A stretch of DNA of 64,000 nucleotides from Candidatus Cloacimonadales bacterium. GTDB taxonomy: Bacteria; Cloacimonadota; Cloacimonadia; Cloacimonadales; JAFGVF01. The position numbers were made by a program, and so were the translations under genes. Position 1 is the first letter of the stretch. Each line of letters opens with the position of its first letter. The notes under the pieces are model-generated. The model ran no database searches and was not told the DNA's origin. It saw only the letters and a program-made list of their open reading frames with translations. The stretch lies in the NCBI GenBank assembly GCA_963667035.1, contig OY762964.1:2752001-2816000 (forward strand). Reading direction: 5' to 3'. This document shows positions 28,272-57,891 of the stretch, in pieces.

Positions 28272-28399
28272 TTTTATTCTCAAAATTAGTATCAACTTCG
28301 CAAATACGTTTTGTTGAAATCTCATAATTGGAAATAAATCCAACCCGTATTCGGCTGTATAACAATGTTTTAGCATTATCTTATGAATATCTAATCATG

Positions 28400-28415
28400 T
28401 GGAACACAAAATGGT
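28400..28415 (+). promoter_or_regulatory. Candidate sigma-54 (-24/-12) promoter
   Basis: TGGAACACAAAATGGT vs consensus TGGCACNNNNNTTGCW; correct spacing, but GG instead of GC at -12. Confidence 0.4.
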
Positions 28416-28458
28416 AATAATAGATAATAGATTTCGAAAATATGTTTATGGAGAATTG

Positions 28459-40334: not shown

Positions 40335-41798
40335 TTACTCTTTAAAAACTGCTTTCAATTCAGGATTGTTAGGATCAATAGCCTTTGCTATTTTCCAATT
40401 ATCGTAGGCTTTTTTACTATCTCCCATTCTGTAGTATATGGAACCTAACTTGATATAGGCTAGAGCCATATTGGGTGCTAAACGGATTGCTGCCTTGCAC
40501 TCTAGAACAGCTTCTTCAAGCTTGCTTTGATAGTAGTATTTAGTTGCTTTAGTTATATGAATCAAAGCTTCATTTAAGTCCTTGTAATCCTTTAGCTCAA
40601 GCCGAACTGCATCAAGCTCTTTTGATTTTCTTAAATACTCATCCGTTGAAATGCCTGTAAACACTTTAAGTGTGTCTACGACATAAATAGTATCTTTGAT
40701 AATCTTCTCAACTTCAATATAAAGAGTGTCCATTGAAACCGGTTGCATTGACTCAACAACCTTCATAGGTTCTCTGATAATTTCTCTTTGAACTCTTGGA
40801 GGTATATGAGATGCAAGTTTATATTCCTCTGTTGTTGAATTACCGAGTTTAACTTCAAGTCCAATGAAGTGATTGCCATATGGAATCTCTAAATCAGAAA
40901 AGAGGGGGTAACTAAAGCCGTAATCAAGAGAAAGGTCTATTGATTTGGTATTTATCATTTCTCTATTGTTTAACGGATTTCTATACTTCTGAATATACTC
41001 TTTCCGTAGAACTAATAGACCTAATCCAAAACTCATTTCATTGTTATTTACACCACTTCTAAAAGCTAGATTTTCAGTAAGTCTATATTCTGTGCCTAAT
41101 GAATACGTAAAATCATTGAAGTCTTTTTCCTTGTAGCTGTTGTACGTTACATCAGAGGCTATTAACCATTGAGGAATAATGTTATACGTTGCACCTAATC
41201 CAAACTCTCTTGGCAGGGCATCATCTGCCTCTATTGCTAACTTTGTTTGAAATATATTCCTACTAACAAATCCCATTTGAAAACCGGTTGAGACCAGATA
41301 TGCTACCCCGAAGTCCATATCAATAGCGGATTTACTTGTGTCATTGTTCACAAAGAAAGGATCATTAGCTGTATATTCATTTGTTCCGTAGTCGATGTTA
41401 TATAGATTAAGTCCAAAACCAGCTTTCAGTTTGTCACCAAATAGATACGAACCAGCATGAAGGCCTACATGGATTTCGTTATATAAATCCGATTGGAAAA
41501 TAGATGAACTGAATGCCGTACTGAATTGATTGCCAATAGGGATTGTTAGAATAACAGCATTGTAATCCAAATTGTCGTTTTCGATACCATAAAGATATGC
41601 TCTATTATCTGTTAATAGCGAGAAGTCACTCAAATGAGCCAGTAAAGCAGGATTATAGACAGAAGCAGAACCATCATAGGATTGAGAGATTCCTGTTTTT
41701 CCCATAGAAAAATTTCTTATTCCGGCTTTCTCAAAAGTATAAGCTATTAGGTTAGAAATGATAAACAAAGCAGAAATTATTATTACTATTCTTTTCAT
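40335..41798 (-). CDS. PorV/PorQ-like outer-membrane beta-barrel with C-terminal coiled coil and TPR
   Basis: Signal peptide from 41798; AGIRNFSMG...DGSASVYNPALL (PorV/FadL-like N-terminus); amphipathic strands (DMDFGVAY, LGTEY, LAFRSG, LDYGF); TPR (ALAYIKLGSIYYRMG...AIDPNN). Confidence 0.7.
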   Translation of the reverse strand: MKRIVIIISALFIISNLIAYTFEKAGIRNFSMGKTGISQSYDGSASVYNPALLAHLSDFSLLTDNRAYLYGIENDNLDYNAVILTIPIGNQFSTAFSSSIFQSDLYNEIHVGLHAGSYLFGDKLKAGFGLNLYNIDYGTNEYTANDPFFVNNDTSKSAIDMDFGVAYLVSTGFQMGFVSRNIFQTKLAIEADDALPREFGLGATYNIIPQWLIASDVTYNSYKEKDFNDFTYSLGTEYRLTENLAFRSGVNNNEMSFGLGLLVLRKEYIQKYRNPLNNREMINTKSIDLSLDYGFSYPLFSDLEIPYGNHFIGLEVKLGNSTTEEYKLASHIPPRVQREIIREPMKVVESMQPVSMDTLYIEVEKIIKDTIYVVDTLKVFTGISTDEYLRKSKELDAVRLELKDYKDLNEALIHITKATKYYYQSKLEEAVLECKAAIRLAPNMALAYIKLGSIYYRMGDSKKAYDNWKIAKAIDPNNPELKAVFKE

Positions 41799-41808
41799 CA
41801 CTTCCTCC

Positions 41809-44800
41809 CTACTTTGCAACCGTTATTGTGTTTAGATGAACTTTGCCATTAACTTTTACCTGACACAGATAGATTCCCGGAGAAACTAATTTCCCACTTT
41901 GATTTACTCCTTCCCAAACTGCTGATTTGCAGTTATAAGTCTGATTAGTTTCAGGATTTATATAATTGTATGTGCTACAGGATAACTTCTTAACCTTCTT
42001 ACCACTACGATTAAAAACTATACAATCAACCTTATCATTCTGAGAATCAACCGGGATTATTATGCGAGCCTGATCGTTGTAACCATCCCAATTAGGAGTT
42101 ATTATATCCGGTATTACTGTTACTCTATCAATATCAGTATTTTTAAAAATGTTTATCGAGAACTGAGCCTCAGCTCCTAATGGTTCAGGCTTTGATTTAT
42201 CATGGGCCGCAATATCAATACTTAATTGTTGTCCCTCATAGTAATAGTTATCAATTATATAAGTTAACAGATAGCCTAAAGAATCAGGATTTGAATTATA
42301 AGTAGAATTATCAAGATTAAAACTGTTTATGTCTCGGTTGTTAATTTTAAGACTAATCGAGGTTGAGTCTATTCCAGTTCCTTTATCTAGGATAGCTATT
42401 TCTAAAGACTCATTAATCTTAATTTCGCTTTCAGGATATTTAAGTATAAAATATGGTTCAAACTCATCCTCTATTAAGTTAAAACTATACTTATCTTCAA
42501 GAAGATTACCTATATTATCAGCAATAGAATATGAGACTTCAACGGTTTCAGCCCCATTCAAATCATCTGTAATATAGCGTATTTTACACCCATTGTCTGA
42601 TAACTCTGTATAAAAATCAAAAATCGGTGTACTATTGATGTTGAAGGAAATGTTGTTTGGATTAACACCGGAAAGGTCATCGTAAAAGTGGAGATATATA
42701 AGAGAGAAAGGATATCCAAACTCTCCTTCGGCAGGATTAGACATTACAAGATAAGGAGGATCAATATCATTGATTGTAGTAAAGTGGTAATTAATGCTAG
42801 CTTCATTATGATTTGAAGAGTTGTCTATAGCATAAATCTGAATATTGACTGTCTGATTATAATTGAATTTTGATTCCGGTGTGTAGAGAATGGAGTAACC
42901 TGTTGCTTCATTTTCTATAACTTCCTCAATCAGATAATCCTCAATCTGTTGATTATTGATATTAAATAGGATGGAGTTTGGATTTACTCCTGTTTCTGTA
43001 TCCATGATTCTGAAAGATATAGAAGTATCAATAGGTATTCCAATGCTTTGTTGAGCAGGATTAAAGCTTTCAAAATACGGTGGAATCATATCATCATCTG
43101 CAACTACAAAACTAAAATTATAATTAGAGAGTGAATTAGGTATCGGAGCAAGGTCGGAAACAGAAACAACTATTGTGACAGTTTCACCATATTCATACGG
43201 CTCATGATTCCATGTAATCCTATAATTACTTTCATTTTCTATTTGCTCTGTTACAGGTATAATCTCAACGTTATTCTCATGAATAACTAAAGAATTAATA
43301 TCCACACCTAATCCTGAATCATGAATCTCAAATGACACATTCTCTGTTGCCGGAACTCCAATATCATTATTCTCCGGATGTAAGTTGCTAAGAAACGGTG
43401 GTTCAATATCAGGTATTACTCTAAAAGAGTATGAAGTATCCATAGAATTGGGAACAGAAGCCAAGTCTTCACAAATAACTCTTACTGTAACCCATTGGTT
43501 GAAATCAAAATTGACACTTGATGTGTATAGAACATCGACTTGCTCTATGGTTTCATTAACTATTATGTACTCGGTAATATCATTTTCATTTATATATAAT
43601 CTAACGGATTTAGGATTGACACCGGTTAACTCGTCTTTCAAAGATAAGGTAATATCTGTATTAGGCAATACGTTTAACTCTTGGTCTGCCGGTGATGTTG
43701 AAGAAATGTATGGTGTTCCCAAATCTTGAATACAGGTAAAAGTGTATTCTTCCATATTCATAACATTTGCAGGTATATTATAATCTGATGCATTAATTTG
43801 TACTGTGACAATATTGCTATAATAGTTCTCAGGAGTATGAGAGATTCTATATCCATTTGTGATTTCATCTACCTTTGTTGAGTTCAATCCAATAATCTCT
43901 ACTCCATTAATTCTAATAGAGACGGTTTCTAAATCAATTCCTGAAAGAGTATCAATAATATCTACACTAAATGATGTGTTTTCAGGATTGTCCATACTGA
44001 ACTTCTCCGGATGATGATTCATAGTATAAGGAGGTTCCAGATCAGCTTCTACAGTAAATACGGAAAGAGTATCGATTGAATTTTTTAATGCAGACCTGTC
44101 TTCAATATAAAAGTGTATTAAATGTTCTCCAATCTCAAATATATTATCTGGCATTGGATTCCATGATAATCTTATTCCTTTATCACTCTGAATAGGTATT
44201 ATCTCAGTTTCATTGATAATTGAATTGTTATCAAGCTCTAGGATTAGGGAATCTATATTCAAGCCTGATTCATAATCGACAATCTCTATGGTGACGGGAT
44301 GATTTCTTGCAATTACTTCCTCATAGGTTGGATCAATATACAAAATAACTGGAGATGAAATATCCTCTAAACATTGAAAAGAGTAAGCAAAAGTACTCAT
44401 AGCATTCGGACTTTCAGCAAAATCAGAAGCACTAATTAAAACATTTACCGTTTGTTCATAAGCGAAGTTTGCTGAGGGATTGATTTCGATAAAGTAATCG
44501 TTAGGAGTTCCATAATAAGAAAATTCAGAATCATCCTGAGTATAAATATTCCCATCAATATTGACTTTGATAGTAGATAAATCTACTCCTTCACCTAAAT
44601 CTAAAATATGGAATGATATATTTGTATCTACACTTACGTCAGTATCTCCCGGAGCCGGATTCCATGTACTAGTATAAGGAGGATCCGTATCCTGACGAGT
44701 AAAAAAACGATAAGCTGTTGTAGGAATTGTGAAGCCATCATTATCATTCGCTACAACAGAGACATCAATAACTTGATTGTAACCAAAGAATTCTTCAGGA

Positions 44801-46470
44801 TTTATAGCAATTCTATAACTATTTAGAGCTCCTGAGTAAGTGAGATTAGGAGAGTTTATGTCATAGATTGTTCCTGCAATGACTACTCTTATTGAGTTGA
44901 TATCTATCTCTTCATCATCTGTTAATGAAAATGATACTGGCTGAGCAATATCTACATCACTAGCTCCATTTGATGGAGTTGGATTGCTAAAGTAGGGAAT
45001 CCCTCCAAGTATTGTTGTGGCACTTCCAAAGTTATTATATCCTTGAGGTGCAGCAATAGTGATGTCCATCTTGTCATCATTATTAAAGTCATGAACTACA
45101 AAATCAGAACCAAGCCTATCATCTACAGAGTTTCCAATTATCCTCATATCAGGATTACTATCTTCTATGTTAATGTTTATAGGAGGATTGTCTTGACCAT
45201 AAAGAATATCAACTTTACCACTTCCAATACCATTTATTGTTGTTGCCCCAGAAGTTCCGATTATTAAATCTTGAATTTGGTCTCCTGATAAGTCTTTAAT
45301 TAACAAAGTACTTCCAAAATTATCATCAGTTTCTTCTGCCGTTATAACCATATTGGCATTATTCTGATTCAATTCAATACTTGAGGGTAGAGAGTTACTA
45401 CCAAACAACAGATAGATTCTACCCCGTTCCAGATCTGTAGAAAAATCCGTGATTACTAAATCATCGTTGTTATCATGGTTATAATCTCCACAAGCCATTG
45501 AATTCCCAAAACGGGAATTCTGCTCTCGTGCCTTTATCGTTAGATTAACATAATTGGAATTACCAAGTGATATCTCTTGGTATGGCATACTGGTTCTACC
45601 ATAAACAACATATATAGCACCACTATTATTGTATATACCATTATCATAACCCGGAGCAGATACTAAAAGATCATTAAATAAATCATTGTTTATATTACCG
45701 CTAGAAAAAGAAAATGAGGAATTGTCATTAGAGTTTAAACCTAGAAATACAGTTATGTTATCCAACTCATTAATAGTACTTTGTTGAGGATAAGTGGAAT
45801 TGCTCCACAGAATATAAGTCTTTCCGCAATTATTTGCTACATTACTATCAGCAGTCGGAGCACCAATAATTATTTCGGATTGTGAGTCATTATTTATATC
45901 TGTTAGTATTAGACTTGAGCCAATTAAGTCATTTTGAGAAGAGCCGATAAAAGTTTGAGTTTCGTATTCAGCCAAATCAATAAGTGAAGGAAGTTGATTA
46001 CTTCCCTTTATAACATAGACTTTTCCAGTTTGGTCCAGTATATCAGTGCCTGCATAAGGTGCTCCAATAACCAGGTCTGAATATATATCCGAATCAATGA
46101 GGCCGGAATCTATTGATTTTCCCAATTGATCGTTGTTTTCTGCTCCGACTATAGTTACATCTGCATTTGAGATTGATAGATTAATGTATTCGTAATTAGG
46201 AATTGATTCATTACCAAAAAAAATGTAAACAGCACCGGCTGAATTCCTTCCTTGAAAATCAGAAAAAGGAGCAGAGCATATCAAGTCGCTTATTCCATCA
46301 CCATTAATATCACCACTACAAATATCGTAAGAAAAGAAATCAAAGGCTGTGTCTCCAGATACGCAATGGTTACCATTCCATTGTGATAAGTCATAATTTA
46401 CAAATGAATCCAAATCAAGTAAAGCTATGAATACGATAAATATAAGTGCGTAAACTTTTTTTGTGCTCAT
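41809..46470 (-). CDS. Giant surface adhesin-like protein: 7 FG-GAP repeats, 9 Ig-like repeats, gliding-motility-type C-terminal domain
   Basis: Signal peptide; seven GD.N.D...DL.IGAP-type repeats; nine D..PP....P...ISF.I.D...GV repeats of about 105-115 aa; C-terminal PDIITPNWDGYND...WEG.N..GK.V.PGIY. Confidence 0.85.
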   Translation of the reverse strand: MSTKKVYALIFIVFIALLDLDSFVNYDLSQWNGNHCVSGDTAFDFFSYDICSGDINGDGISDLICSAPFSDFQGRNSAGAVYIFFGNESIPNYEYINLSISNADVTIVGAENNDQLGKSIDSGLIDSDIYSDLVIGAPYAGTDILDQTGKVYVIKGSNQLPSLIDLAEYETQTFIGSSQNDLIGSSLILTDINNDSQSEIIIGAPTADSNVANNCGKTYILWSNSTYPQQSTINELDNITVFLGLNSNDNSSFSFSSGNINNDLFNDLLVSAPGYDNGIYNNSGAIYVVYGRTSMPYQEISLGNSNYVNLTIKAREQNSRFGNSMACGDYNHDNNDDLVITDFSTDLERGRIYLLFGSNSLPSSIELNQNNANMVITAEETDDNFGSTLLIKDLSGDQIQDLIIGTSGATTINGIGSGKVDILYGQDNPPININIEDSNPDMRIIGNSVDDRLGSDFVVHDFNNDDKMDITIAAPQGYNNFGSATTILGGIPYFSNPTPSNGASDVDIAQPVSFSLTDDEEIDINSIRVVIAGTIYDINSPNLTYSGALNSYRIAINPEEFFGYNQVIDVSVVANDNDGFTIPTTAYRFFTRQDTDPPYTSTWNPAPGDTDVSVDTNISFHILDLGEGVDLSTIKVNIDGNIYTQDDSEFSYYGTPNDYFIEINPSANFAYEQTVNVLISASDFAESPNAMSTFAYSFQCLEDISSPVILYIDPTYEEVIARNHPVTIEIVDYESGLNIDSLILELDNNSIINETEIIPIQSDKGIRLSWNPMPDNIFEIGEHLIHFYIEDRSALKNSIDTLSVFTVEADLEPPYTMNHHPEKFSMDNPENTSFSVDIIDTLSGIDLETVSIRINGVEIIGLNSTKVDEITNGYRISHTPENYYSNIVTVQINASDYNIPANVMNMEEYTFTCIQDLGTPYISSTSPADQELNVLPNTDITLSLKDELTGVNPKSVRLYINENDITEYIIVNETIEQVDVLYTSSVNFDFNQWVTVRVICEDLASVPNSMDTSYSFRVIPDIEPPFLSNLHPENNDIGVPATENVSFEIHDSGLGVDINSLVIHENNVEIIPVTEQIENESNYRITWNHEPYEYGETVTIVVSVSDLAPIPNSLSNYNFSFVVADDDMIPPYFESFNPAQQSIGIPIDTSISFRIMDTETGVNPNSILFNINNQQIEDYLIEEVIENEATGYSILYTPESKFNYNQTVNIQIYAIDNSSNHNEASINYHFTTINDIDPPYLVMSNPAEGEFGYPFSLIYLHFYDDLSGVNPNNISFNINSTPIFDFYTELSDNGCKIRYITDDLNGAETVEVSYSIADNIGNLLEDKYSFNLIEDEFEPYFILKYPESEIKINESLEIAILDKGTGIDSTSISLKINNRDINSFNLDNSTYNSNPDSLGYLLTYIIDNYYYEGQQLSIDIAAHDKSKPEPLGAEAQFSINIFKNTDIDRVTVIPDIITPNWDGYNDQARIIIPVDSQNDKVDCIVFNRSGKKVKKLSCSTYNYINPETNQTYNCKSAVWEGVNQSGKLVSPGIYLCQVKVNGKVHLNTITVAK

Positions 46471-46595
46471 GATAACTCCTTAAAAACGACTTTAATAAGT
46501 CCTGGAATGCATAAAGTCAAACAAAAAAAATATTAATTTTTTACTTGCCACATAAAAGAGAATTGAATTTAATCCAATTATCTTGGGAGGATTGG

Positions 46596-47975
46596 ATGAT
46601 AAGGAAAACTGTTATTTACTTGTTGATTATCTCTGTGCTCTGTTGTGTCGTTGAGTTATATTCAGAAACAACAAGCTCTTTAGCAGAGTTAAAAGCTGAA
46701 ACTGAACTTGCAAAACGCATTGAAGACCTAGTGAAACCATTTACTGAAAAAGTTATTGTTGGAGTTGATCTTGATTTAAGATATAATCTATTTGAGACTA
46801 ACACTTCAGATTTCAAGTTCGATCCCAATATGAGCCTACCCGGTTTACCGGTAGGTAAAACAGATAATAGAATAGTTGAGAATGATCTTGAAGATGTAGT
46901 ACCAACTGAAATATTAAGAAAGAAAATTAGTATTAAAGTTCCATTAGATACTTCCAAAGAAGTAATCGAATTTCTCAATCAAGAAATACATAATATTATT
47001 ACAATAGATGAGAATAAAGGGGATATATTGCAGATAACCCCTGAATCTAATCTAACCAAGTATATCCGTTCAAAGAATAACAGGTTACAGACTTACTTTT
47101 TTCTCACCTTAATTGCAGTTATGATTTTAATGCTGAATAATATACGTAGCGGTATGAGAATAATTGCCAAGTCAATGAGAAAAATCAAAATCACTAACCT
47201 TGAAGTTCTAAATAAATCAAAAACACCGGAGATAATTAATAATAGTACTTCTGAACAAACTCATCCCAGAATTCCTCTTGAACCTATAAAAGTAAAAGTT
47301 CTTCAAGATGAAGAAGAAGATTTGATGCCAACGAGATTCGATTTCTTAGAAGATCTTTCGGATGCTAACTTGTTAGAAGTTTTAAGAGAAGAGAATCCCG
47401 AGGATATAGCATTTATTGTTTCTCAAATCTCTCCAGAAAAAGCAGGAGCTGTTTTCCAGAATCTAAAAGAGAATAAAGAACAAGTAATAAATGCAATGTT
47501 AGAAAATCAATCAAAGCTGAAGCTAGACCTTAAAATCCTAGTTGTTAATTTATATAATAAGTATCTGGAAATTATGGAGAAAGAAGCAATTCAGTTAGAG
47601 GGTGTAGGTCTACTCGCAAAAATAATAAACAGTTCGGATTATGAGAGTTCTAACATTCTATATGAATCCATAAATAATCTTGATAAAGATAAGGCTAAAG
47701 AGATTGCGAAAAAGATATTCTTATTGGATGATGTCTTATTGCTGTCTAATATTCAAATTGAACAGATTTCTCTTGAATTTACTCATCTAGAGTTAGTTAA
47801 ATTCTTAGCCTGTGTGAATACAAGAATAAAGAACAAATTCTTCTCTCAACTTTCGGAAAGAGCAACAATGATTTTTAAAGAGGACATAGAATCTCTAGGT
47901 AAGCTTTCGGAAGGAGAAAAGAGAGTTATATTGAATCACTCATTGAGAAAAATTCGTAATATTCTAAATTTCTAA
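46596..47975 (+). CDS. FliF ring-domain/TM/FliG middle+C-terminal fusion protein (putative rotor)
   Basis: GGGAGG RBS before ATG 46596; N-terminal signal/TM; FliF-C-like segment; second TM; FliG-M-like FDFL...EENPEDIAFIVS; FliG-C-like GVGLLAKIIN...IFLLDD...LSERATMIFKEDIE. Confidence 0.75.
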   Translation: MIRKTVIYLLIISVLCCVVELYSETTSSLAELKAETELAKRIEDLVKPFTEKVIVGVDLDLRYNLFETNTSDFKFDPNMSLPGLPVGKTDNRIVENDLEDVVPTEILRKKISIKVPLDTSKEVIEFLNQEIHNIITIDENKGDILQITPESNLTKYIRSKNNRLQTYFFLTLIAVMILMLNNIRSGMRIIAKSMRKIKITNLEVLNKSKTPEIINNSTSEQTHPRIPLEPIKVKVLQDEEEDLMPTRFDFLEDLSDANLLEVLREENPEDIAFIVSQISPEKAGAVFQNLKENKEQVINAMLENQSKLKLDLKILVVNLYNKYLEIMEKEAIQLEGVGLLAKIINSSDYESSNILYESINNLDKDKAKEIAKKIFLLDDVLLLSNIQIEQISLEFTHLELVKFLACVNTRIKNKFFSQLSERATMIFKEDIESLGKLSEGEKRVILNHSLRKIRNILNF

Positions 47976-47985
47976 AAGGTTTTTT

Positions 47986-48723
47986 ATGAAAATAAGTACA
48001 CTATTAGGTATAGTTTTAAGTATAGTGATTATTGTTTTTGCCATTAATGCAAAAGGTAGTTTAGTAGAATACTTTGATCCAATAGCTTTGATGGTAACAT
48101 TAGGGGGAACTGTTTCAGCTCTTTTGGCAACTTACTCGTTTTCTAGCCTTAAAGATGCAATAGAATCGTTGAAAGTAGTTTATTTTACACCGCCCATACC
48201 GCATGACGATATGGTCGAGATAATGATTGGAGTGAGTAAGGATTCTCGTTCATTAAGTTTTATGGAAATTCAAAGCTATGAAGAAGTGCAAAATATCCCA
48301 TTTCTTAAAACAACTATTACAATGTTAGCTGATAATCTTCCCAAAGACAAAATTACTGATTTTCTTGAGTCTGAAAGTAGATCAATACTTAGAAGAAGAA
48401 TTCGTTCAGCTAAGATATTCGGAGTTGCTGGAAATCTGTCACCAATGTTTGGTATGATTGGTACAGTAATTGGACTAATAGCTATGCTTGGCAATATGAG
48501 TGATCCTTCTGTTGTCCCTAGAGCTATGAGTCTTGCTCTCGTTACAACTCTATATGGATTAATTCTATCTGTGATAATTTTTAGACCAATAGCAGGTAAG
48601 ATATCTTCAGGAGCAGAATATGACTATATCAACAGAGAAATCATTATTCAAGGTATCTCAGGAATTATTGAAAAACGCAACTCGGAGATAATTAAGACTG
48701 AGTTGACTAAAATTTATGCATAA
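47986..48723 (+). CDS. motA: MotA/PomA-family stator subunit
   Basis: D..ALMVTLGGT, GNLSPMFGMIGTVIGLI.ML, MSLALVTTLYG, FRPIAGK, EIIIQGI..I. Confidence 0.88.
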   Translation: MKISTLLGIVLSIVIIVFAINAKGSLVEYFDPIALMVTLGGTVSALLATYSFSSLKDAIESLKVVYFTPPIPHDDMVEIMIGVSKDSRSLSFMEIQSYEEVQNIPFLKTTITMLADNLPKDKITDFLESESRSILRRRIRSAKIFGVAGNLSPMFGMIGTVIGLIAMLGNMSDPSVVPRAMSLALVTTLYGLILSVIIFRPIAGKISSGAEYDYINREIIIQGISGIIEKRNSEIIKTELTKIYA

Positions 48724-49372
48724 TAAAGACAACAATAAAGTTAATCAAGTTTTGTCTGATATCGAGGATAGCCTCATAAATACTCCAGACAATGATTTCT
48801 CAGGATTTTATTCAGCTTTAGTTCCTTATGCTGATATGATGACTTTACTACTCATTTTCTTCGTTTTCTATTTTGTCATAGGAGATACAGAAACAGGGTG
48901 GAAGGCTATTGCCGAGATACAAAAGAAGAAACTTAATAACAATATCCAATCAGAATCCATAGCAGAAACTGAGATGTATGAAGGTGATATTAGCGAAAAG
49001 GTAATATCAATACCGGGGAATATCCTCTTTGAATCTGGTGAGGCAAACCTTAGATGGTTGTCTCAAGATACACTTATTAAAATTGCTATGGATATAAAGA
49101 AGATCGTTAAAGACGATGATAGCTGGCAAATTCGTATAGAAGGACACACAGACAATGTTCCTATTGCCAATAATAAATATGCTTCAAACTGGGAGCTTTC
49201 TACAGCAAGAGCTTTGAGCATTGTGAAGTTTTTTATTAGAAATGGCTACTTTACTGCAGATCAACTACAGATTATGGGGTATGGAGAATTCAAACCTCTA
49301 GTACCAAATGATACAGAAGAGAATCGAAATAGAAACAGACGCGTTGAGATTAAAATCAGTCAGAAAAGATAG
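48716..49372 (+). CDS. motB: MotB/PomB-family stator subunit with OmpA-like peptidoglycan-binding domain
   Basis: PYADMMTLLLIFFV (catalytic Asp kept), LFESG.A.L, IEGHTDNVPI, SNWELSTARA, GYGEFKP, NRRVEI. Confidence 0.9.
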   Translation: MHNKDNNKVNQVLSDIEDSLINTPDNDFSGFYSALVPYADMMTLLLIFFVFYFVIGDTETGWKAIAEIQKKKLNNNIQSESIAETEMYEGDISEKVISIPGNILFESGEANLRWLSQDTLIKIAMDIKKIVKDDDSWQIRIEGHTDNVPIANNKYASNWELSTARALSIVKFFIRNGYFTADQLQIMGYGEFKPLVPNDTEENRNRNRRVEIKISQKR

Positions 49373-49380
49373 GAGGGATA

Positions 49381-50217
49381 TTGATAGATTATTATAGTTT
49401 TTGGGATATCAAAGAACCACCTTTTGAAGATAACAATGATCCTAAGTTTTTCTATAAAAGTATAGATCATTATGAAGCACTTGAAAGACTGAAGTATGTA
49501 ATTAACTCAAGAAGCATGAACATTGGACTGCTTAGTGGAGAAATAGGAACCGGAAAAACCATTACAAAAATGGTTTTGATTTCTGAACTTAAGAAACAAA
49601 ACCCACATAATGTTATTGTAAACATTAACTCATCCTTGTTCACTTTTAATGAGATTATTACAGAAATACTCTCTCAAATCATGGATATAGATCCAATAAA
49701 TTTACCAACTAAGAGATACTATTTGTTTAAGAAACTTGAAAGATATATTGAAGACGAGTTATTATACACTAAAGGATTAATTTACATATTTTTAGATGAA
49801 GCTCAGAAGATTACTCCTAAAGACTTGGATTTACTAAAAGATTTAACTAACATTAACTATAATTATTTCTGTCCTGTAAAGCTAATGCTTATTGGACAAC
49901 CGGCTATATTGAGAAATGTGAAAAAACTTCCACAAGTTGATCAAAGAATTGGTATAAGATTTCATCTAAACAATATGAATGAGGAAGATACTAATGCATA
50001 TATTGATTACAGGCTTAAAGTATCCGGATCTCAAAAAAAGATTTTTAGTGATAGTGCCCTATCTTTAGTTTATAAAAAAACTTCAGGAATTCCAAGAGAA
50101 ATTAACAGAGCATGCAAAATTGCAATGGATGTAGCCTCTGCTGAAAAAGAAAGCCTCATATCAGGAGAAGTTATGGAAATGGTTTTTAATGATTTATCTT
50201 ACCATGGAAGAGAATGA
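49381..50217 (+). CDS. ExeA/PrsA-like AAA ATPase
   Basis: AGGAGG plus TTG start; Y..FW....PF....DP.FFY, GEIGTGKT, FLDEAQ, LIGQP, QRI, SGIPREIN. Confidence 0.85.
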   Translation: MIDYYSFWDIKEPPFEDNNDPKFFYKSIDHYEALERLKYVINSRSMNIGLLSGEIGTGKTITKMVLISELKKQNPHNVIVNINSSLFTFNEIITEILSQIMDIDPINLPTKRYYLFKKLERYIEDELLYTKGLIYIFLDEAQKITPKDLDLLKDLTNINYNYFCPVKLMLIGQPAILRNVKKLPQVDQRIGIRFHLNNMNEEDTNAYIDYRLKVSGSQKKIFSDSALSLVYKKTSGIPREINRACKIAMDVASAEKESLISGEVMEMVFNDLSYHGRE

Positions 50218-52775
50218 TAATGCCTAAGAAAAGACTCTCTATTTCAAATATTAGAAGTAAGAAAAGCGAGAATGAATCAACTGAAGTTATACTTCCTGAG
50301 TTAGAAGATAATCAGGCTGATTCCGACACTAAACTTGTTAAAGAAATTCCTAAATCAGCAAACCAAGGTGATGGGAATATCGATAATCCAAGAGTGAAAA
50401 CAGAAACTCAAGATGATCTAAAATCATTAAAGCATAATCCAACAGGATTTATCTCTAATCACAATGAGGAAAGCGAACCTTCGCTACTAGAATATCTTGA
50501 AGTTGGATACCGAAACAAATGGTTAATTCTAATCATTACTCTTTTGTGTATTATTGGGGCATATGTTTTACACATTAGAAAAGTTCCTTTATTTAGAACT
50601 AGAACTAAAATATTCATCCATGATGATTCAATGGAGCTGGAAGTAATTAATAATAAGCCATTCATAAAAGGGAAAATGGATGTTGCTACTTGGATGGAAA
50701 TACTAAAGACTAGAGATGTCTGTAAAAGAGTCTCTGCATACATGAATAATACTATATCTCCCCAAGAAGCTAAGTTGATGATTAACTGTACTAGCTCAAA
50801 AAATGAAGAAAACATCATTTCAATCACCTCAACTAATCCTAATCCAGTTATAGCTACGGACGTTGCTAATAATTTCTATCGTGCACTTAGAGATTATGAT
50901 ACGGAAGCCAACAAGCGTAACATTAACAAAACCATAGATTATCTTGAGCATCAACTAAGAGACAAAAATCACGAGCTTGATTCCTTAAACACAGCAGTAA
51001 AAGCTCTTTATGCTAATATAGATTTTAAAAACTACGGTGATAATTTGCATGAAAACTTAAAGCGTTTAAATGCTTTCAAACATAATTTAACAACTGTAGA
51101 AGTAGAGTTAGAAGCTGAGAATGCAAACATAAAAGTTTTGAACTCCAAGCTTAAAGAGGAAGATTCAACCTATATTACTGAAACAACTTATAGTGAACCA
51201 CTTAAAATTAAACTGATGAATCTTGAAGTTGATTTAGCTAGAGCTTTAACTACCTATGGGGAGAATCATCCAAAAGTTATAAGTCTACGTACTAACATAG
51301 CAAACATTAAGAAACTTATTTCAGATGGTGTTGAAGAAAGCATTCAAATGAGGAGTATTGGTCAAAATCCGTTAAAACAACAGATTCTAAAGGATCTCGT
51401 TGAATCTCAGACCAGGTCAATATCTTTAACCCAAAAACGTAATGCTTTGAGAAAAGTAATAAAAGAAATGGAGTTGTCTCCTAAAGATAACTCTATGCTG
51501 GTAAATAAGCAAAGAGAGAAAGATGCTTTAATACTTACCATCACTAACCTTCAAAACCAGATTAATAAAGTCAGATTGAATGCTAACATAGATTTTAACA
51601 GAATAGTTCAATTGGAAGAGGCAACTATTCCGCAGAAACCAATTGGTAAAAATCTACTCTTAATGCTTCTTAATGGATTAGGATTGGGTGTTGCTTTAAG
51701 TAGCATCTTAGTTTTTTTACTTACTAGGTTTGATAACAAGATTAATACTATTAATAAACTTCTTCATGTTTATCCGAACATTCCTATCATAGGTACAATA
51801 CCTAGGTTCAAGTTTAGTCCTATTAAGATTGATGCTCAAACTTCTAATCTAACAGAAGAGGAATTACAGAACAAGGATTTGGTAAACAGTGTTTTCAATG
51901 AAATTGCTTTAAATTTCCGATACCTGATTCTTAACAAAAGGAATAATGCTATTGCAGTGGTGAGTTCTTTAAAAGGCGAAGGCAAATCAACTATAACGAA
52001 CTATTTAGCAGTTGCTTTAGCTAATAATAATACTAAGACTCTTCTTGTTGATGCAGATTTCTATAATCCTCAGATATCTCGATATTACAGTAAAACTAAA
52101 GCATTCGGATTCTCCGAAGTTCTATCTGAACAAATACCATTGCATGAAGTGATAATAAATACTAAAATTGATAATCTTATGATACTGCCATCAGGCAAGT
52201 GTCCTCCAAGTGTTGGACATCTTTATCACAGTGACAGATTTAAAGAGATTATACAAGAAGTAAAGTCTGTTTGCGATATCATAATTATTGATACTCCTGC
52301 TTCAATGTATTTCCCGGAGACATCAGTACTTGTTAATGAGATGGATTGTGTTCTCCTAACTGCAAAGATGGGATTTACTACAACAATCAGTTGTAAAAAA
52401 TTACTAAAGAAGATACAAATCCTAGATACCAAAATTGGGGGAGTAATTGCAAATTCAATGTTAAAAGAGGTTTTCGATAAAACCTATAGTGATTACTACA
52501 ATTATAGTTATGAATATTACTCCCGATACCATAACTACACAAACAATCAAAAGCAGAATTCTTTAACAAAACATATACCTACAGATTTGTTTAAAGTAGT
52601 AAAAAAGAAGGATAAGTTGGAAAGAACATTCTTGCAGGAAGGTGAAATTCTAGACTATGAAGCTCAATCTGAAACAAATTTCGGAAGAATAAATAAAGAT
52701 AAAACCTTTGGGCTATTTCTAAAAAAATTAAAACGTTTCCTTGGTCTTGATGATGACTTTGATTTAGGAGAATAG
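50214..52775 (+). CDS. wzc: Wzc/GumC-like polysaccharide co-polymerase with tyrosine autokinase domain
   Basis: Two TMs around a coiled coil with YGENHPKV; Walker A KGEGKST, A' LLVDAD, B IIIDTP; Tyr cluster YSDYYNYSYEYYSRY. Confidence 0.88.
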   Translation: MIMPKKRLSISNIRSKKSENESTEVILPELEDNQADSDTKLVKEIPKSANQGDGNIDNPRVKTETQDDLKSLKHNPTGFISNHNEESEPSLLEYLEVGYRNKWLILIITLLCIIGAYVLHIRKVPLFRTRTKIFIHDDSMELEVINNKPFIKGKMDVATWMEILKTRDVCKRVSAYMNNTISPQEAKLMINCTSSKNEENIISITSTNPNPVIATDVANNFYRALRDYDTEANKRNINKTIDYLEHQLRDKNHELDSLNTAVKALYANIDFKNYGDNLHENLKRLNAFKHNLTTVEVELEAENANIKVLNSKLKEEDSTYITETTYSEPLKIKLMNLEVDLARALTTYGENHPKVISLRTNIANIKKLISDGVEESIQMRSIGQNPLKQQILKDLVESQTRSISLTQKRNALRKVIKEMELSPKDNSMLVNKQREKDALILTITNLQNQINKVRLNANIDFNRIVQLEEATIPQKPIGKNLLLMLLNGLGLGVALSSILVFLLTRFDNKINTINKLLHVYPNIPIIGTIPRFKFSPIKIDAQTSNLTEEELQNKDLVNSVFNEIALNFRYLILNKRNNAIAVVSSLKGEGKSTITNYLAVALANNNTKTLLVDADFYNPQISRYYSKTKAFGFSEVLSEQIPLHEVIINTKIDNLMILPSGKCPPSVGHLYHSDRFKEIIQEVKSVCDIIIIDTPASMYFPETSVLVNEMDCVLLTAKMGFTTTISCKKLLKKIQILDTKIGGVIANSMLKEVFDKTYSDYYNYSYEYYSRYHNYTNNQKQNSLTKHIPTDLFKVVKKKDKLERTFLQEGEILDYEAQSETNFGRINKDKTFGLFLKKLKRFLGLDDDFDLGE

Positions 52776-53857
52776 TGAAGATAAAAAAAGATAGAATTAA
52801 GCGTAAGCATATATATGCTATAACATATCTTTTGATTATAATAGCTACAATCATTATACTTTTATTATTACCTAGGTCATGTAGCTATTCAGGTACTATT
52901 TATGCCGGAGTCGGAGGATGTGTTTATGATCCCGGTGTATATCCTATGTACAAAGGTATGACTTTATACGAGTTGATTCGTAAAGCAGATGGTATGAAAC
53001 CTAATGCTGACTTAGATCGCTTTAATCCGGATATGATTATTGAGCCATGGGAATCATATTGTATTCCCTGCAAAATAAAAAAAGACCCTCCTGTTAAACA
53101 AATTATTGCAGAAGTAGCTCCTTATGCCCCTAAACGAGAGCTTAATGATGTAGACCGCTTCACGATTATCTATGCAGGTTTACCAAGAACTTTTATACTT
53201 CTAGATGTTTATCCGAATTACGGACTCATATCAGCAACACATATTCCTTGGTTTACAGCAGTACATGATTTAGTCGGAAATGTAAAGACTCTCTATGAAA
53301 TGTATTTAATCGGAGGAACTGAAGCATTGGTAAGGTCAGTGTCTGATGTTACCCAGACAAATATTGACTACTACTTCGCTCAGGATAGACCTGCTTGGAT
53401 TAAATTTATTGATTATCTTGGTGGAGTAAAAGTAGACATTCCGGTTGAATTTGCAAAGCAATACAGAGTAAATAGTGGTATTCATATAATTGATGGATAC
53501 ACTTCTTGGTTCTATATTACCTTTATTTCCAAAGAAATGAGAAGAATAGATTATAAAACCGGCTCAATGAATAGAATCACTCGTCAAAAACTTTTTATGG
53601 AAGAGCTATATGCCAAATTTAAGAATCTGGATTTCTTTAGAAGTAGTCAGATTGGAAAATCCATATTAACAGATGCTGAAACGAATCTCTCTGCAGCTCA
53701 AGCCATAGAACTATCAAACAAAGTCAGGAAGATGTCTTCAAACAATCTAAAGCTTTTCACTTATCCGGGCGTTATCATTAATTATAATGGAGAGAACTAT
53801 TGGGAAGTTAATCCTATCAGATATAAAAATAAAATCTTTAATGAGATAAATAATTGA
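52775..53857 (+). CDS. SLBB plus LytR-CpsA-Psr (LCP)-like membrane protein, catalytic motifs degenerate
   Basis: N-terminal TM; GCVYDPGVY...LYELIRKADG (SLBB); GG..AL..SV...TNIDYY, FIDYLGGVKVD, G...IDG, R..RQK.F (LCP). Confidence 0.75.
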   Translation: MKIKKDRIKRKHIYAITYLLIIIATIIILLLLPRSCSYSGTIYAGVGGCVYDPGVYPMYKGMTLYELIRKADGMKPNADLDRFNPDMIIEPWESYCIPCKIKKDPPVKQIIAEVAPYAPKRELNDVDRFTIIYAGLPRTFILLDVYPNYGLISATHIPWFTAVHDLVGNVKTLYEMYLIGGTEALVRSVSDVTQTNIDYYFAQDRPAWIKFIDYLGGVKVDIPVEFAKQYRVNSGIHIIDGYTSWFYITFISKEMRRIDYKTGSMNRITRQKLFMEELYAKFKNLDFFRSSQIGKSILTDAETNLSAAQAIELSNKVRKMSSNNLKLFTYPGVIINYNGENYWEVNPIRYKNKIFNEINN

Positions 53858-53864
53858 GGTATTC

Positions 53865-54587
53865 ATGCGTATTATTCTTGTTACTTTACTTTTTTTAACT
53901 ACATTTTCGGTATTTGCCCAACAAACTTATATTCCCCGTATGGCAAAAGATGACTTTTTTAACGGTGAAACTGATCTATCTAACATACCTGATTCGCTAT
54001 TGGTCAGTACAGAAGATGAATACATTCTTAGAAAAGGTGACAGAATATCAATTTATGTAATGGATCATTTAGAGTTCTCAAAGCCTCAAATAATGATATT
54101 ACCTGACGGAAGTATTGAGTATCCTTTGATAGGAACTCTGAGAGTTGCAGGACTTAACTCTGCTCAACTAAGGGCTATTATTGAAGAACGTTTACGTCCT
54201 TACGTGACTATACCCATTGTTACTATCTATATTGAAAAAATATTCGGAGAGAAACTCAATATAATTGGCTATGTTAATGGACCTGGAGAATATCAGCTTT
54301 ACGAACCTATAAGAATCACTGATGCTATTGCAATGGCAAAAGGTATTATAAACATTAGAGAAGTTAAAACTATAAGAGTTATTCGTAAAGATGGAGACGT
54401 GTTTAACGTAAGCCTTAAACATATATGGTTTAATGATGATGATGAGACAAACTACAGAGAAAATCTTCTTCTTAATCCGGGAGATACGCTTATTGTACCT
54501 CCTCCTCGAAGATTTAACTGGAGAATGTATACTGCAATAATTGCAACTCTATCACTTATTCTTCAGATATATATAGCTACTAACTAA
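53865..54587 (+). CDS. Wza/OPX-like polysaccharide export protein
   Basis: YILRKGDRISI.V, PDGSIEYPLIG...VAGL (Poly_export), GYVNGPG.Y...AIAMAKG, LNPGDTLIVP; hydrophobic C-terminal helix. Confidence 0.85.
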   Translation: MRIILVTLLFLTTFSVFAQQTYIPRMAKDDFFNGETDLSNIPDSLLVSTEDEYILRKGDRISIYVMDHLEFSKPQIMILPDGSIEYPLIGTLRVAGLNSAQLRAIIEERLRPYVTIPIVTIYIEKIFGEKLNIIGYVNGPGEYQLYEPIRITDAIAMAKGIINIREVKTIRVIRKDGDVFNVSLKHIWFNDDDETNYRENLLLNPGDTLIVPPPRRFNWRMYTAIIATLSLILQIYIATN

Positions 54588-56157: not shown

Positions 56158-57891
56158 ATGGAGAGAGAAATGAAAAAGGTTTTAATTATTACCGGAATTG
56201 TAGTCGTAGCGATAGTTCTAATTGTAGTACTTGGAGGCTATTTCACCGCTAATCGCTTCTTTAATGCCAAAAGCGGTTTCTCATTAAGATCAACTTTAAC
56301 CGAATCAATGGGTAAGAGAGTTGATTATACAGATTTAAAAGTTAAATTGGGATTAGGAGTCAAAGTAGAAATTAATGGTTTCTCAATAGTTGATTCAGAT
56401 TATCCGGATAAACCTTTGATTCATGCCGGTAAAGTTTATGCTGATATGAAACTACTTCCTCTTCTTTCTAAAAAAATTGAAGTCGTTAGGATAACTATAG
56501 ACAATCCTGAAATATATTGGAATGATAAGATTAAGTTTGAACAAAAAGAAAAAAAGCCTAACTCAACGACAAAGAGTAGTAAACCCGAAAAATCCAAAAA
56601 AGAAAGTGCTATGTTTAGTTTATCAGTTCCTGAAATTGGAATCAATAAGGGTAAGTTTACCTTTGAAACTGAAACTGATACACTTTTAGTAGAAAACATT
56701 AATCTAAACCTTCAAGTAAGTGTTAATAACTTGGATAAGGATAAAGAAGATTATTCCGGAACGTTAGAAATAAAGAATATTGATGGCTCCTATGGGCCCT
56801 ATAACTGGCAGAGAGCATCAGGTTCAATATCATTGAATCAGGACAAATTATCGTGTGATGAATTGATATTTGCTACATCGCTTGGTAGATATTGGATGAA
56901 GGTTGATTTGTCTGATTGGAGTCACTTTGGTGTTAAAGATGTTACTCGTCCTAAACTTACATTCCATGTTATCTCTCCTCTTGCTGATTTTTCTAAGCTT
57001 CCAAAACAGGAAAAAGCAAATACGGAACCGGATAGTCTAATCGCAATGGAAGAGATTGAAGTTGAGCAAAAATCAGACATCAATAACGATAAGCTAGAAC
57101 TTCCTTTGGATGTCCAAGGCATAATAGATTTTAAGAAAGTAAAAACAGAATTCATTGAAATTAATAGTCTTAAAACCCTTATTGGGGCAAACAACGACAA
57201 AATATATCTCAATGTTGAGACATCAATTGCAGGTGGAAGAGTTAATCTGGAAACTACTCTGATCAACGGTAAAACAAAATCATTGAAAGATTTAGGATAT
57301 AAGGGAGAATTAACTATAAGTCATATGAGCTTACAGGAAGTCTCAAAATCTCTTATCAAAGATGATTTCTTAGAGGGTAATCTTTATGCCTCTTTTGATG
57401 TACAAGGGACAGGTGTGAGTTTACAAGATATGGTTAGCACTATGGAAGGTCAGGGTACAATATCTTTAAAAGAAGGTTACTTCTATTTACCTGATAATGT
57501 AAGAGAGTTTGGTAAATATGCTAAGACTCTTAAGAATGATAAGATTAAGGTAAATGTAGAAAATACTTCTACATACAAGAAAGGTATTCTAAAGCTCGAT
57601 AATCTTGTTGCTGAATCTGATGTGGCTGATGCTACAATATCCGGTTATATTAAACTTACTGGTTACATCAATACAAAGATAGTAGGAAAAGTCTCAAGAC
57701 AAGTTAGTAAAGAGCTAAAAATACCTGGAAAACAAATGTTCTTTGATGAAGAGAAGAGACTTGGATTTAAAGTTACTGTAAAAGGCTCGTTTGAAGAACC
57801 TGAGGTTAAGTTCTATTGGGCTAAACTCACAGGACAGATATGGAAGAATGTAAAAAGGGGAGTTGGTAGCTTAATAAAAGGATTATTCTAG
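56158..57891 (+). CDS. AsmA family protein
   Basis: N-terminal TM, LLPLLSKKIEV..I.IDNPEI, beta-taco-like repeats, C-terminal VKGSFEEP...GLF. Confidence 0.7.
   Translation: MEREMKKVLIITGIVVVAIVLIVVLGGYFTANRFFNAKSGFSLRSTLTESMGKRVDYTDLKVKLGLGVKVEINGFSIVDSDYPDKPLIHAGKVYADMKLLPLLSKKIEVVRITIDNPEIYWNDKIKFEQKEKKPNSTTKSSKPEKSKKESAMFSLSVPEIGINKGKFTFETETDTLLVENINLNLQVSVNNLDKDKEDYSGTLEIKNIDGSYGPYNWQRASGSISLNQDKLSCDELIFATSLGRYWMKVDLSDWSHFGVKDVTRPKLTFHVISPLADFSKLPKQEKANTEPDSLIAMEEIEVEQKSDINNDKLELPLDVQGIIDFKKVKTEFIEINSLKTLIGANNDKIYLNVETSIAGGRVNLETTLINGKTKSLKDLGYKGELTISHMSLQEVSKSLIKDDFLEGNLYASFDVQGTGVSLQDMVSTMEGQGTISLKEGYFYLPDNVREFGKYAKTLKNDKIKVNVENTSTYKKGILKLDNLVAESDVADATISGYIKLTGYINTKIVGKVSRQVSKELKIPGKQMFFDEEKRLGFKVTVKGSFEEPEVKFYWAKLTGQIWKNVKRGVGSLIKGLF

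Follow-up and report, generated by a model that had tools for sequence, protein, structure and literature searches.

Nine genes in the genome of a Candidatus Cloacimonadales bacterium appear to encode a rotary module of the cell envelope that is derived from the flagellum, works independently of it and acts on a complex of an outer-membrane barrel and a surface adhesin; we put the probability of this interpretation at about 0.55. The genes lie at positions 40,335 to 54,587 of a 64,000-nucleotide stretch (hereafter, the window) taken from contig OY762964.1 (positions 2,752,001 to 2,816,000) of assembly GCA_963667035.1. The source genome is a single contig of 3.10 Mb with a completeness of 98.2% and a G+C content of ca. 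34%. The composition of the module, the folds of its components, the conservation of their residues, the synteny of the genes and their independence from flagella were directly supported by the analysis described below.

Layout of the locus

The features of the locus are given in window coordinates.

40335-41819, minus strand: predicted FadL/PorV/PorP-superfamily barrel with tetratricopeptide repeats (TPR), 494 aa
41809-46470, minus strand: giant FG-GAP/Big_5 adhesin, 1553 aa; directly upstream of the barrel gene
46471-46595, no strand: intergenic region that separates the divergent adhesin-barrel and motor gene groups, 125 bp
46596-47975, plus strand: FliF/FliG-like fusion, the putative single-polypeptide rotor, 459 aa
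47986-48723, plus strand: MotA/PomA-type stator A subunit; 10-nt gap after the fusion gene
48716-49372, plus strand: MotB-type stator B subunit; 8-nt overlap with motA
49381-50217, plus strand: ExeA-like AAA_22 ATPase; 8-nt gap after motB
50214-52775, plus strand: Wzc-like co-polymerase and tyrosine autokinase; 4-nt overlap with the ATPase gene
52775-53857, plus strand: SLBB-LCP protein; 1-nt overlap with the wzc-like gene
53865-54587, plus strand: short Wza-like export protein; 7-nt gap after the SLBB-LCP gene

These nine genes and their spacing had been described in a first-pass annotation of the window, and all of them were confirmed. Neighbouring plus-strand genes are at most 10 nt apart and overlap by up to 8 nt; the distance of 125 bp to the divergent pair likewise agreed with the coordinates. 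The domain labels that the annotation had attached to the genes were borne out by scans with Pfam and NCBIfam models. The start of the fusion gene is at 46596, as annotated and as found in relatives, and gene callers give a product of 459 aa. A longer version beginning with TTG at 46545 was considered and is unsupported, a stop codon being present at that site in the closest relative. The true start of the barrel is likely the invariant Met 8 (about 41798). The 125-bp divergent region presumably holds the promoters. Consensus scans of the whole region returned chance numbers of promoters (85 found against 80 ± 9 expected), so that no promoter was assigned, and of terminators (7 found against 6.3 ± 2.6 expected).

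The putative rotor gene is a natural mini FliF-FliG fusion

The first plus-strand gene encodes a natural mini FliF-FliG fusion. The order of its domains is a signal peptide or N-terminal anchor, a periplasmic domain that resembles ring-building motif 3 (RBM3) and the collar of FliF (residues 28-156), a transmembrane (TM) segment at ca. 163-190, and the middle and C-terminal domains of FliG (FliG M+C) at ca. 247-456. In Pfam, FliG_M was matched with 30.5 bits (cut-off, 25) and FliG_C with 51 bits (cut-off, 23.3), and there was no match with FliG_N. The score of TIGR00207 was 75.6 bits against a cut-off of 226.7, and the match covered model positions 104-301 only. When a profile of 11 fusion orthologues (A1) was compared with PDB profiles, the best match was Aquifex FliG (3hjl_A, E 6e-32), in which residues 247-456 were aligned to FliG 110-320; this alignment spans the FliG middle and C-terminal domains and not FliG_N. 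R422 of the torque helix is invariant among the fusions, and E429 and D430 are nearly invariant. At the position of the EHPQR motif of FliG_M, the fusion reads E-N-P-E.

The N-terminal part was modelled with AlphaFold2 (AF2) for residues 1-205 and 23 orthologues, with a mean predicted local distance difference test score (pLDDT) of 75.5. The model consists of a signal-peptide-like helix, an alpha-beta-[42-residue loop]-beta-alpha-beta domain and then a long TM helix. The first 18 Foldseek matches of the periplasmic model in the PDB were all FliF RBM3/collar (S-ring) structures (E 3e-5 to 4e-3). In VIA-align, FliF entries again came first, with Z-scores of 13.2, 13.1 and 12.1 and a root-mean-square deviation of 2.0 Å over ca. 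90 residues (91 for the Z-score of 13.2) aligned to FliF 235-438, ahead of SpoIIIAG (Z 8.9) and PrgK (Z 8.3). The fusion of the window itself gave no match with PF08345 at E <= 0.01; in distant members of the family, ca. 500 aa long, YscJ_FliF_C scores above its cut-off (P0142, 40.7 bits; P0105, 62.7 bits), and members of this type align to A1 from end to end. The naming of the first gene as a FliF/FliG-like fusion in the first-pass annotation is thus supported both by the fold and by sequence intermediates.

An SLPGLPV motif in the inserted periplasmic loop is invariant and is kept in the distant members too. A typical cleavable signal peptide is found at the N-terminus of most fusion orthologues, and the mature protein therefore probably comprises the periplasmic RBM3-like domain, one TM helix and the cytoplasmic FliG M+C. 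No match with YscJ_FliF (RBM1/RBM2) was obtained for the fusion, whose periplasmic part is only ca. 130 residues long. The joint between the C-terminus of FliF and FliG_N is made unnecessary by the fusion.

Stator subunits of the fusion system

The MotA protein matched MotA_ExbB of Pfam with 84.5 bits. Its best NCBIfam models were MotP (148 bits) and PomA (144 bits), both over the full length, versus 15.9 bits for TolQ; equivalog cut-offs were not reached (148 versus 394). Residues 1-240 were aligned to residues 1-238 of Vibrio PomA (8brd) with an E-value of 1e-32, and a basic residue at the position of PomA R88 and the TM3/TM4 motifs were kept in all 14 MotA sequences of the system. MotB was matched by MotB_plug (29.8 bits) and OmpA (66.4 bits) of Pfam and by MotD/MotB models of NCBIfam (122-140 bits). 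The Asp of the channel, in the TM segment, is present in the protein of the window and in 13/16 MotB-like sequences of the system. Tandem MotB paralogues are encoded in loci of Elusimicrobia, and in two of these loci the second copy has Asn at the channel Asp site (L047 10976-11668; L048 10925-11638). The TM3/TM4 segments of the window MotA share Thr residues with PomA in the 8brd alignment. Such residues mark Na+-coupled stators, a hint that the motor may be sodium-driven.

Flagellated genomes that also carry the fusion (G024 and G012) have two MotA genes each, one beside the fusion and one elsewhere. The fusion-adjacent MotA proteins share 33-35% identity with that of the window, versus 26% for those encoded elsewhere. 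In G031, a flagellated genome without the fusion, the only MotA is of the non-adjacent kind; G040, a non-flagellated carrier, has the fusion-adjacent MotA only; and G014, with neither a flagellum nor the fusion, has no MotA. Because a second, separate MotA is present in the flagellated carriers, the stator is, judged by these sequences, a dedicated paralogue of the fusion system.

The source genome has no flagellar genes

The first-pass annotation had noted that no fliM/N, flhA, rod, hook, flagellin or che gene lies in the 64 kb, and this proved true of the whole genome. Searches of the entire genome gave no match with FHIPEP (the FlhA export gate; control positive in 4/14 reference genomes), with Flagellin_N or Flg_bb_rod (rod/hook), or with YscJ_FliF, FliMN_C or CheW; the positive controls of these flagellar and chemotaxis searches matched in 4 to 8 of the 14 reference genomes. 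FliG_C had exactly one match genome-wide, which is the fusion at the locus. Five other genes of the MotA/ExbB/TolQ family are found elsewhere in the source genome. A complete flagellar set that could use these stators is therefore not present.

Within the order, FHIPEP was found in 22 of 203 genomes, all of them in families f2, f5, f6, f7, f10, f11 and f13 (families are numbered here; that of the source genome is f1). It was found in none of the 12 genomes of f1 and none of the 62 of f12, and 43 of the 46 genomes that carry the fusion are without it. The proposal that the motor is independent of a flagellum thus holds both for the source genome and for the great majority of carriers.

Distribution and phylogeny of the fusion and its neighbours

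A search of the 203 genomes with A1 matched 64, 18 of which had only a canonical FliG of ca. 350 aa. The remaining 46 carry the fusion: 9/12 genomes of f1 (including that of the window), 34/62 of f12 and 3/8 of f2; in f4 there was none among 98. The eight other f1 loci have all nine genes in the same layout. Since synteny is kept in 8/8 other f1 genomes at protein identities of 40-82%, the cluster is not a chance arrangement. A core of five genes, namely those for the adhesin, the barrel-TPR protein, the fusion, MotA and MotB, is found in 9/9 f1 loci and in 14/18 loci of f2 and f12; in these 14 loci the five genes lie on one strand in that order. The genome G150 has two tandem copies of a fusion-MotA-MotB-TPR set (L040 9986-18472), and G192 has both subfamilies in one genome, the type with barrel and adhesin and the type with a free TPR protein (L035, L043).

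Among 1.84 billion representative proteins, a profile search found 5159 FliG-like proteins at E <= 1e-3, and the best 32 of the 5159 (E <= 2e-61) all had the fusion architecture or were fragments of it. In the Atlas, the nearest cluster is in Cloacimonadota, and similar clusters of FliG-domain proteins of ca. 500-700 aa are in Elusimicrobiota, Bdellovibrionota and Bacteroidota; those in Bdellovibrionota measure 578-717 aa. The single fusion sequence, used as query, found no relative in species-representative genome contigs. A scan of these with a three-row distant alignment (A5) found four loci in Elusimicrobia metagenome-assembled genomes, one in Margulisiibacteriota and one in UBP8.

The core is present in two of the four Elusimicrobia loci (L048 and L050), where a giant BNR/fn3 surface protein with a C-terminus like that of type IX secretion system (T9SS) cargo and a 546-548-aa TPR-ended protein are followed by the fusion. 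In L048, MotA, MotB and a second MotB follow the fusion; in L050, the stator genes are convergent just downstream. L047, which is one of the other two and was scanned with Pfam, reads fusion-MotA-MotB-MotB. In the Margulisiibacteriota locus, the fusion is accompanied by a TPR protein, with no stator nearby. The Elusimicrobia barrel-TPR protein (546 aa) is a full-length homologue of that of Cloacimonadota (hhalign probability 99.2, E 3.5e-19), and the Elusimicrobia fusion is likewise a full-length homologue of the Cloacimonadota fusion (hhalign probability 99.0). Of all features of the system, the link of the motor to the adhesin and barrel, which had been proposed from the window alone, is conserved best, and it extends across phyla.

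A quick maximum-likelihood tree (unrooted, short search) was built from the FliG M+C region of 62 selected rows, which comprised 14 fusions from the loci, 13 representatives of ca. 480-550 aa, 34 rows of canonical length and one 774-aa full FliF-FliG fusion. A branch with a Shimodaira-Hasegawa-like approximate likelihood ratio (SH-aLRT) support of 95 separates 26 short fusions from 35 canonical FliG rows, and two long fusions sit among the canonical FliG. The tree excluded four multi-domain proteins (P0050, P0052, P0056 and P0058). They are unusual long FliG-domain proteins, some of 645-701 aa and one a 996-aa FliM-DUF4116-FliG fusion; P0050 and P0052 have two FliG_C stretches each.

The barrel, the adhesin and their T9SS context

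Scans of the barrel protein gave TPR_2 (33 bits), a match with the PorV/PorQ model PorV_fam of 32 bits versus a cut-off of 90, and weak matches with FadL and TraF. In its AF2 model (pLDDT 74.9), a barrel of about 14 strands (residues 66-331) is followed by a low-confidence linker of ca. 60 residues (338-395) and five TPR-type helices (392-493). In Foldseek, the best matches were FadL/TodX (E 1e-11) and, with the highest target-normalised TM-score (0.55), the T9SS translocon protein PorV (8gl6_F, E 3e-10). Three DT(V/I)(Y/F) repeats in the periplasmic linker are kept in 19/19 orthologues. The cut-off of PorP_SprF was reached only in the barrel orthologue of L028. Taken together, the profile scores and the model place the protein, as a prediction, in the FadL/PorV/PorP superfamily with a TPR tail. 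Of the "PorV-like barrel" of the first-pass annotation, the PorV-type fold stands, and identity with PorV itself goes beyond the evidence.

The adhesin contains FG-GAP (118 bits) and Big_5 (60 bits) domains. When its C-terminal 120 aa were scanned alone, CHU_C was matched with 31.5 bits (cut-off, 27); in the same kind of scan, 16/17 adhesin C-termini matched this model, six of the 17 above the cut-off. In the study PMC9143113, T9SS cargo is held at the surface by PorP-like barrels (SprB-SprF, PG1035-PorP-PorE); it found that such barrels bind type B cargo and that PorP also binds periplasmic PorE. A predicted complex of fusion residues 24-160 and barrel residues 335-494 scored 0.18 (mark, 0.32), which speaks neither for nor against binding.

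A SprA homologue is encoded in the source genome (SprA_N, 51.4 bits, in a 2063-aa frame), and SprA_N was found in 40/41 relatives, including 4/4 of f4. Models for GldL/GldM matched none of the genomes searched (TIGR03513 0/41, TIGR03517 0/41, PF12081 0/1), nor did any control genome match, which makes the reach of these models uncertain. Elsewhere in the window, a 1116-aa protein at 6812-10162 on the minus strand carries Peptidase_C25 (184 bits) and its propeptide domain, a length and family in keeping with a T9SS sortase like PorU or with a gingipain-like protease. Proteins at 381-1133 and 28399-29838, both on the plus strand, have Por_Secre_tail/FlgD_ig C-termini.

The export genes are an extension of the operon in one family

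The four genes after motB resemble those of polysaccharide export. The ATPase matched AAA_22 with 51.3 bits, and its best NCBIfam model was TIGR03015 (141 bits; cut-off, 324) over positions 2-267 of 269, so that it is most like the ATPase of PEP-CTERM loci. The Wzc-like protein matched Wzz (33.9 bits) and AAA_31 (48.7 bits), and was above the cut-off of the tyrosine kinase model TIGR01007 (112.9 versus 108.05). The SLBB-LCP protein is membrane-anchored and glycopolymer transferase-like; it matched LytR_cpsA_psr with 51.2 bits and SLBB with 23.5 bits, the latter below the cut-off. The Wza-like protein matched Poly_export (69 bits), SLBB_2 (30.8 bits) and TIGR03027 (80 versus a cut-off of 180). 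All PEP-CTERM equivalogs stayed below their cut-offs (e.g. TIGR03018, 114 versus 231; TIGR03007, 79.5 versus 279), and no glycosyltransferase or polymerase gene adjoins the module in the window.

The ExeA-like ATPase, Wzc, LCP and Wza genes follow motB in 9/9 f1 loci, from three genera, at 42-77% identity; in all nine, consecutive genes from motB to the last of them are separated by 8 nt at most or overlap by up to 4 nt. They were found in 0/18 loci of f2 and f12 within the flanks examined, and in 0/3 Pfam-scanned Elusimicrobia loci. The motor's conserved partner is, for this reason, not the export scaffold, to which the first-pass annotation had linked the machine; across genomes, the barrel and adhesin accompany fusion-MotAB, and Wzc, Wza and ExeA do so in f1 only. 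Because of the tight junctions between motB and the export genes in 9/9 loci, the extension of the f1 operon most likely serves to express an export route for slime or matrix together with the adhesin motor, an arrangement that, on this reading of the gene order, would suit surface movement or attachment.

Other genes of the window

A CHASE2-adenylate/guanylate cyclase and a TPR-containing sigma-54 activator are encoded on the minus strand at 33517-35631 and 25851-28193, 11-20 kb upstream of the locus, and are possible regulators of it. The product of 56158-57891 (plus strand) is AsmA-like; its C-terminal part weakly matches a Leptospira-type GspN (28 bits versus a cut-off of 50).

Discussion

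The mechanism proposed for the module is as follows. The RBM3/collar-like domain would build a ring, which the single TM helix would join to FliG M+C with its torque helix. The PomAB/MotAB-type stator, held on peptidoglycan by MotB, would turn ion flow into torque on the FliG helix, so that ion flux would drive rotation of MotA and thereby move the fusion ring in the inner membrane. This movement would be passed from the collar loop with its SLPGLPV motif to the TPR/linker of the barrel or to a TPR adaptor, and the barrel-bound surface adhesin would be moved or actuated, resulting in gliding-type motility or dynamic adhesion. We infer ring formation, rotation, periplasmic coupling and the output, be it gliding or actuation of the adhesin, from the parts described above. 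A more specific form of the proposal, in which a stand-alone ring of RBM3-FliG(M+C) with its own MotAB but no export apparatus, rod, hook or filament delivers torque to the barrel and a T9SS-delivered adhesin as a hitherto unrecognised engine of gliding or adhesin-driven movement in non-flagellated Cloacimonadota and Elusimicrobiota, is put forward only tentatively, and we consider it rather less probable than not.

Several observations weigh against the rotary interpretation. In 4/18 loci of f2 and f12, fusion-MotA-MotB is followed by a free TPR protein of ca. 375 aa, and there is no barrel or adhesin nearby; one of these four loci has the set twice in tandem. The idea that this protein is a detached TPR tail of the barrel is unsupported (hhalign probability 16.5%, a generic repeat similarity). 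Similarly, two of the four Elusimicrobia loci have unrelated upstream genes and consist of the fusion and three stator-sized open reading frames. The collar-like loop of the fusion (residues 63-104), through which movement would be passed on, was modelled with low confidence (pLDDT 45-62), and the barrel reaches no family cut-off of PorV, PorP or PorQ. The CHU_C model matches 99 places in the source genome and is thus unspecific; its use as a mark of type B cargo status for the adhesin was dropped on these grounds, and the C-terminus can safely be read, by its sequence, as a T9SS-type sorting domain and not as "type B". The MotB of G024 (L028 9149-9733) has Ser at the channel Asp site; this residue and the Asn of the second Elusimicrobia copies may indicate heteromeric or regulatory B subunits. 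Finally, a search of sequencing runs found no RNA run with the locus, only three runs of DNA or unknown type from one study.

The main rival is an energiser of the Tol/Ton kind, in which MotAB and the fusion would pass ion-motive energy to the barrel-TPR protein without sustained rotation or cell movement, and would drive one-off or cyclic insertion, anchoring, extension, retraction or release of the adhesin. The anatomy would be the same as in the rotary interpretation, and the combination of a B subunit that binds peptidoglycan with a TPR protein and a partner in the outer membrane recalls Tol-Pal/CpoB. It also recalls PorE-PorP as described in PMC9143113. The free-TPR subfamily shows that the module is workable without an adjacent adhesin. 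However, the known Tol, Ton and Gld systems use stators of the ExbB/TolQ/GldL type and have no FliG-type rotor. The RBM3 domain and the charges of the torque helix, moreover, are retained across two phyla, which suggests that the rotor is actually turned. We therefore regard the energiser as unlikely, albeit the alternative that deserves most attention. If, instead, the rotor-stator pair powered or gated polymer export through Wzc/Wza, the tight junctions from MotB to Wza in 9/9 f1 loci, which suggest co-transcription, would find a ready explanation; yet export genes accompany the same fusion-MotAB core in 0/18 f2/f12 loci and 0/3 Elusimicrobia loci, and the module of the window adjoins no glycosyltransferase or polymerase gene, so that an extrusion motor is improbable.

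A role as the general T9SS motor of the order, in place of GldL/GldM, might be suggested by the failure to find GldL/GldM in 41 genomes (a search with no positive control) together with the presence of SprA_N and 99 matches resembling C-terminal sorting domains (CTDs). This role was rejected, as a very improbable one: f4 has SprA_N (4/4, among 40/41 genomes overall) but never the fusion (0/98), and T9SS-like secretion in f4 must therefore be independent of the module. The order also contains flagellated families (FHIPEP in 22/203 genomes), which makes flagellar loss in f1 and f12 plausible and could leave the locus as a decaying, functionless remnant. Against this speak reading frames that are unbroken at identities of 27-45% between families and phyla, the conservation of the torque helix, of stator residues and of the periplasmic motif, and a fixed architecture that differs from that of canonical FliF plus FliG. 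In G012 and G024, moreover, the fusion occurs in the same genome as a canonical FliG, a full-length FlhA and a second MotA, and the fusions form a clade apart from canonical FliG. The remnant explanation is thus close to refuted.

The rotary module can be compared with several known systems. With the flagellar motor it shares the RBM3/collar fold of FliF (Z 13), FliG M+C with its torque charges, a MotA that resembles PomA over its full length, and the plug, Asp and OmpA domain of MotB. Unlike in flagella, the genome of the locus is without FliG_N, FliF RBM1/RBM2, FlhA, FliM/N and genes for rod, hook, filament and chemotaxis, and the rotor is a natural fusion of ca. 460-500 aa in a lineage apart from canonical FliG, with the barrel-TPR protein and adhesin as neighbours. 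RBM1/RBM2, which house the export gate in flagella, are missing from the fusion. Engineered FliF-FliG fusions are reported to form rings and were used for solved structures (8z4d; PMC6079021).

Resemblance to the gliding/T9SS machinery of Bacteroidota (GldLM, SprB, SprF) lies in an ion-driven envelope motor that is genetically tied to a giant adhesin with a predicted CTD, in a barrel of the FadL/PorV/PorP superfamily encoded just downstream of the adhesin, an order that mirrors sprB-sprF, and in the SprA homologue and about 99 CTD-like matches of the source genome. It differs in that MotAB and a FliF/FliG-type rotor take the place of GldLM/GldKN, the barrel has its own TPR tail, and the system is found in Cloacimonadota and Elusimicrobiota rather than in Bacteroidota. 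Tol-Pal, ExbBD-TonB and AglRQS-Glt are 5:2 motors that act on the outer membrane, belong to the ExbB/TolQ branch and have no FliG-type rotor. What they have in common with the locus is an ion-driven inner-membrane stator that works with partners spanning the periplasm, with accessory proteins that contain TPRs or bind peptidoglycan, and with a protein of the outer membrane, but the stator of the locus scores 144-148 bits with PomA/MotP versus 15.9 with TolQ. The export genes, for their part, are like Wza/Wzc and the exopolysaccharide loci of PEP-CTERM systems in the Wzz-kinase, the Poly_export-SLBB protein and the AAA_22 ATPase, with XrtA/PEP-CTERM models as the best NCBIfam matches; unlike in PEP-CTERM loci, the equivalogs are below cut-off, an LCP protein is inserted, adjacent glycosyltransferases are lacking, and the genes are linked to a motor in f1 only.

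The first-pass annotation knew of no described system with this combination, and a literature search that had most subscription journals outside its range likewise gave no FliF/FliG-MotAB system outside flagella. None appears in the available passages of a MotAB phylogeny, a pan-bacterial survey of flagellar genes and a 2026 gliding review (PMC12505986, PMC13277936 and PMC13104615).

The locus has a bearing on the origins of flagella, namely on the old question of whether a minimal core of MS-ring, FliG and stator can function alone. FliG-type rotors and MotAB/PomAB-type stators are, to our knowledge, known to work only inside flagella. Here, such a torque-generating pair, its rotor pared down to a single protein, is kept under selection in flagellum-free genomes, wired to a barrel and an adhesin in at least two phyla. 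If the rotor does rotate, the pair would be the simplest natural rotor-stator known and attractive for structural and single-molecule work. Even if its output is not motility, the module would represent a new, flagellar-type branch among the ion-driven machines with a role at the outer membrane (Tol, Ton, Gld, Agl, Zor). For the organisms themselves, the module is a candidate mechanism by which anaerobes that are abundant but uncultured, in digesters, sediments and groundwater, may move on surfaces or adhere.

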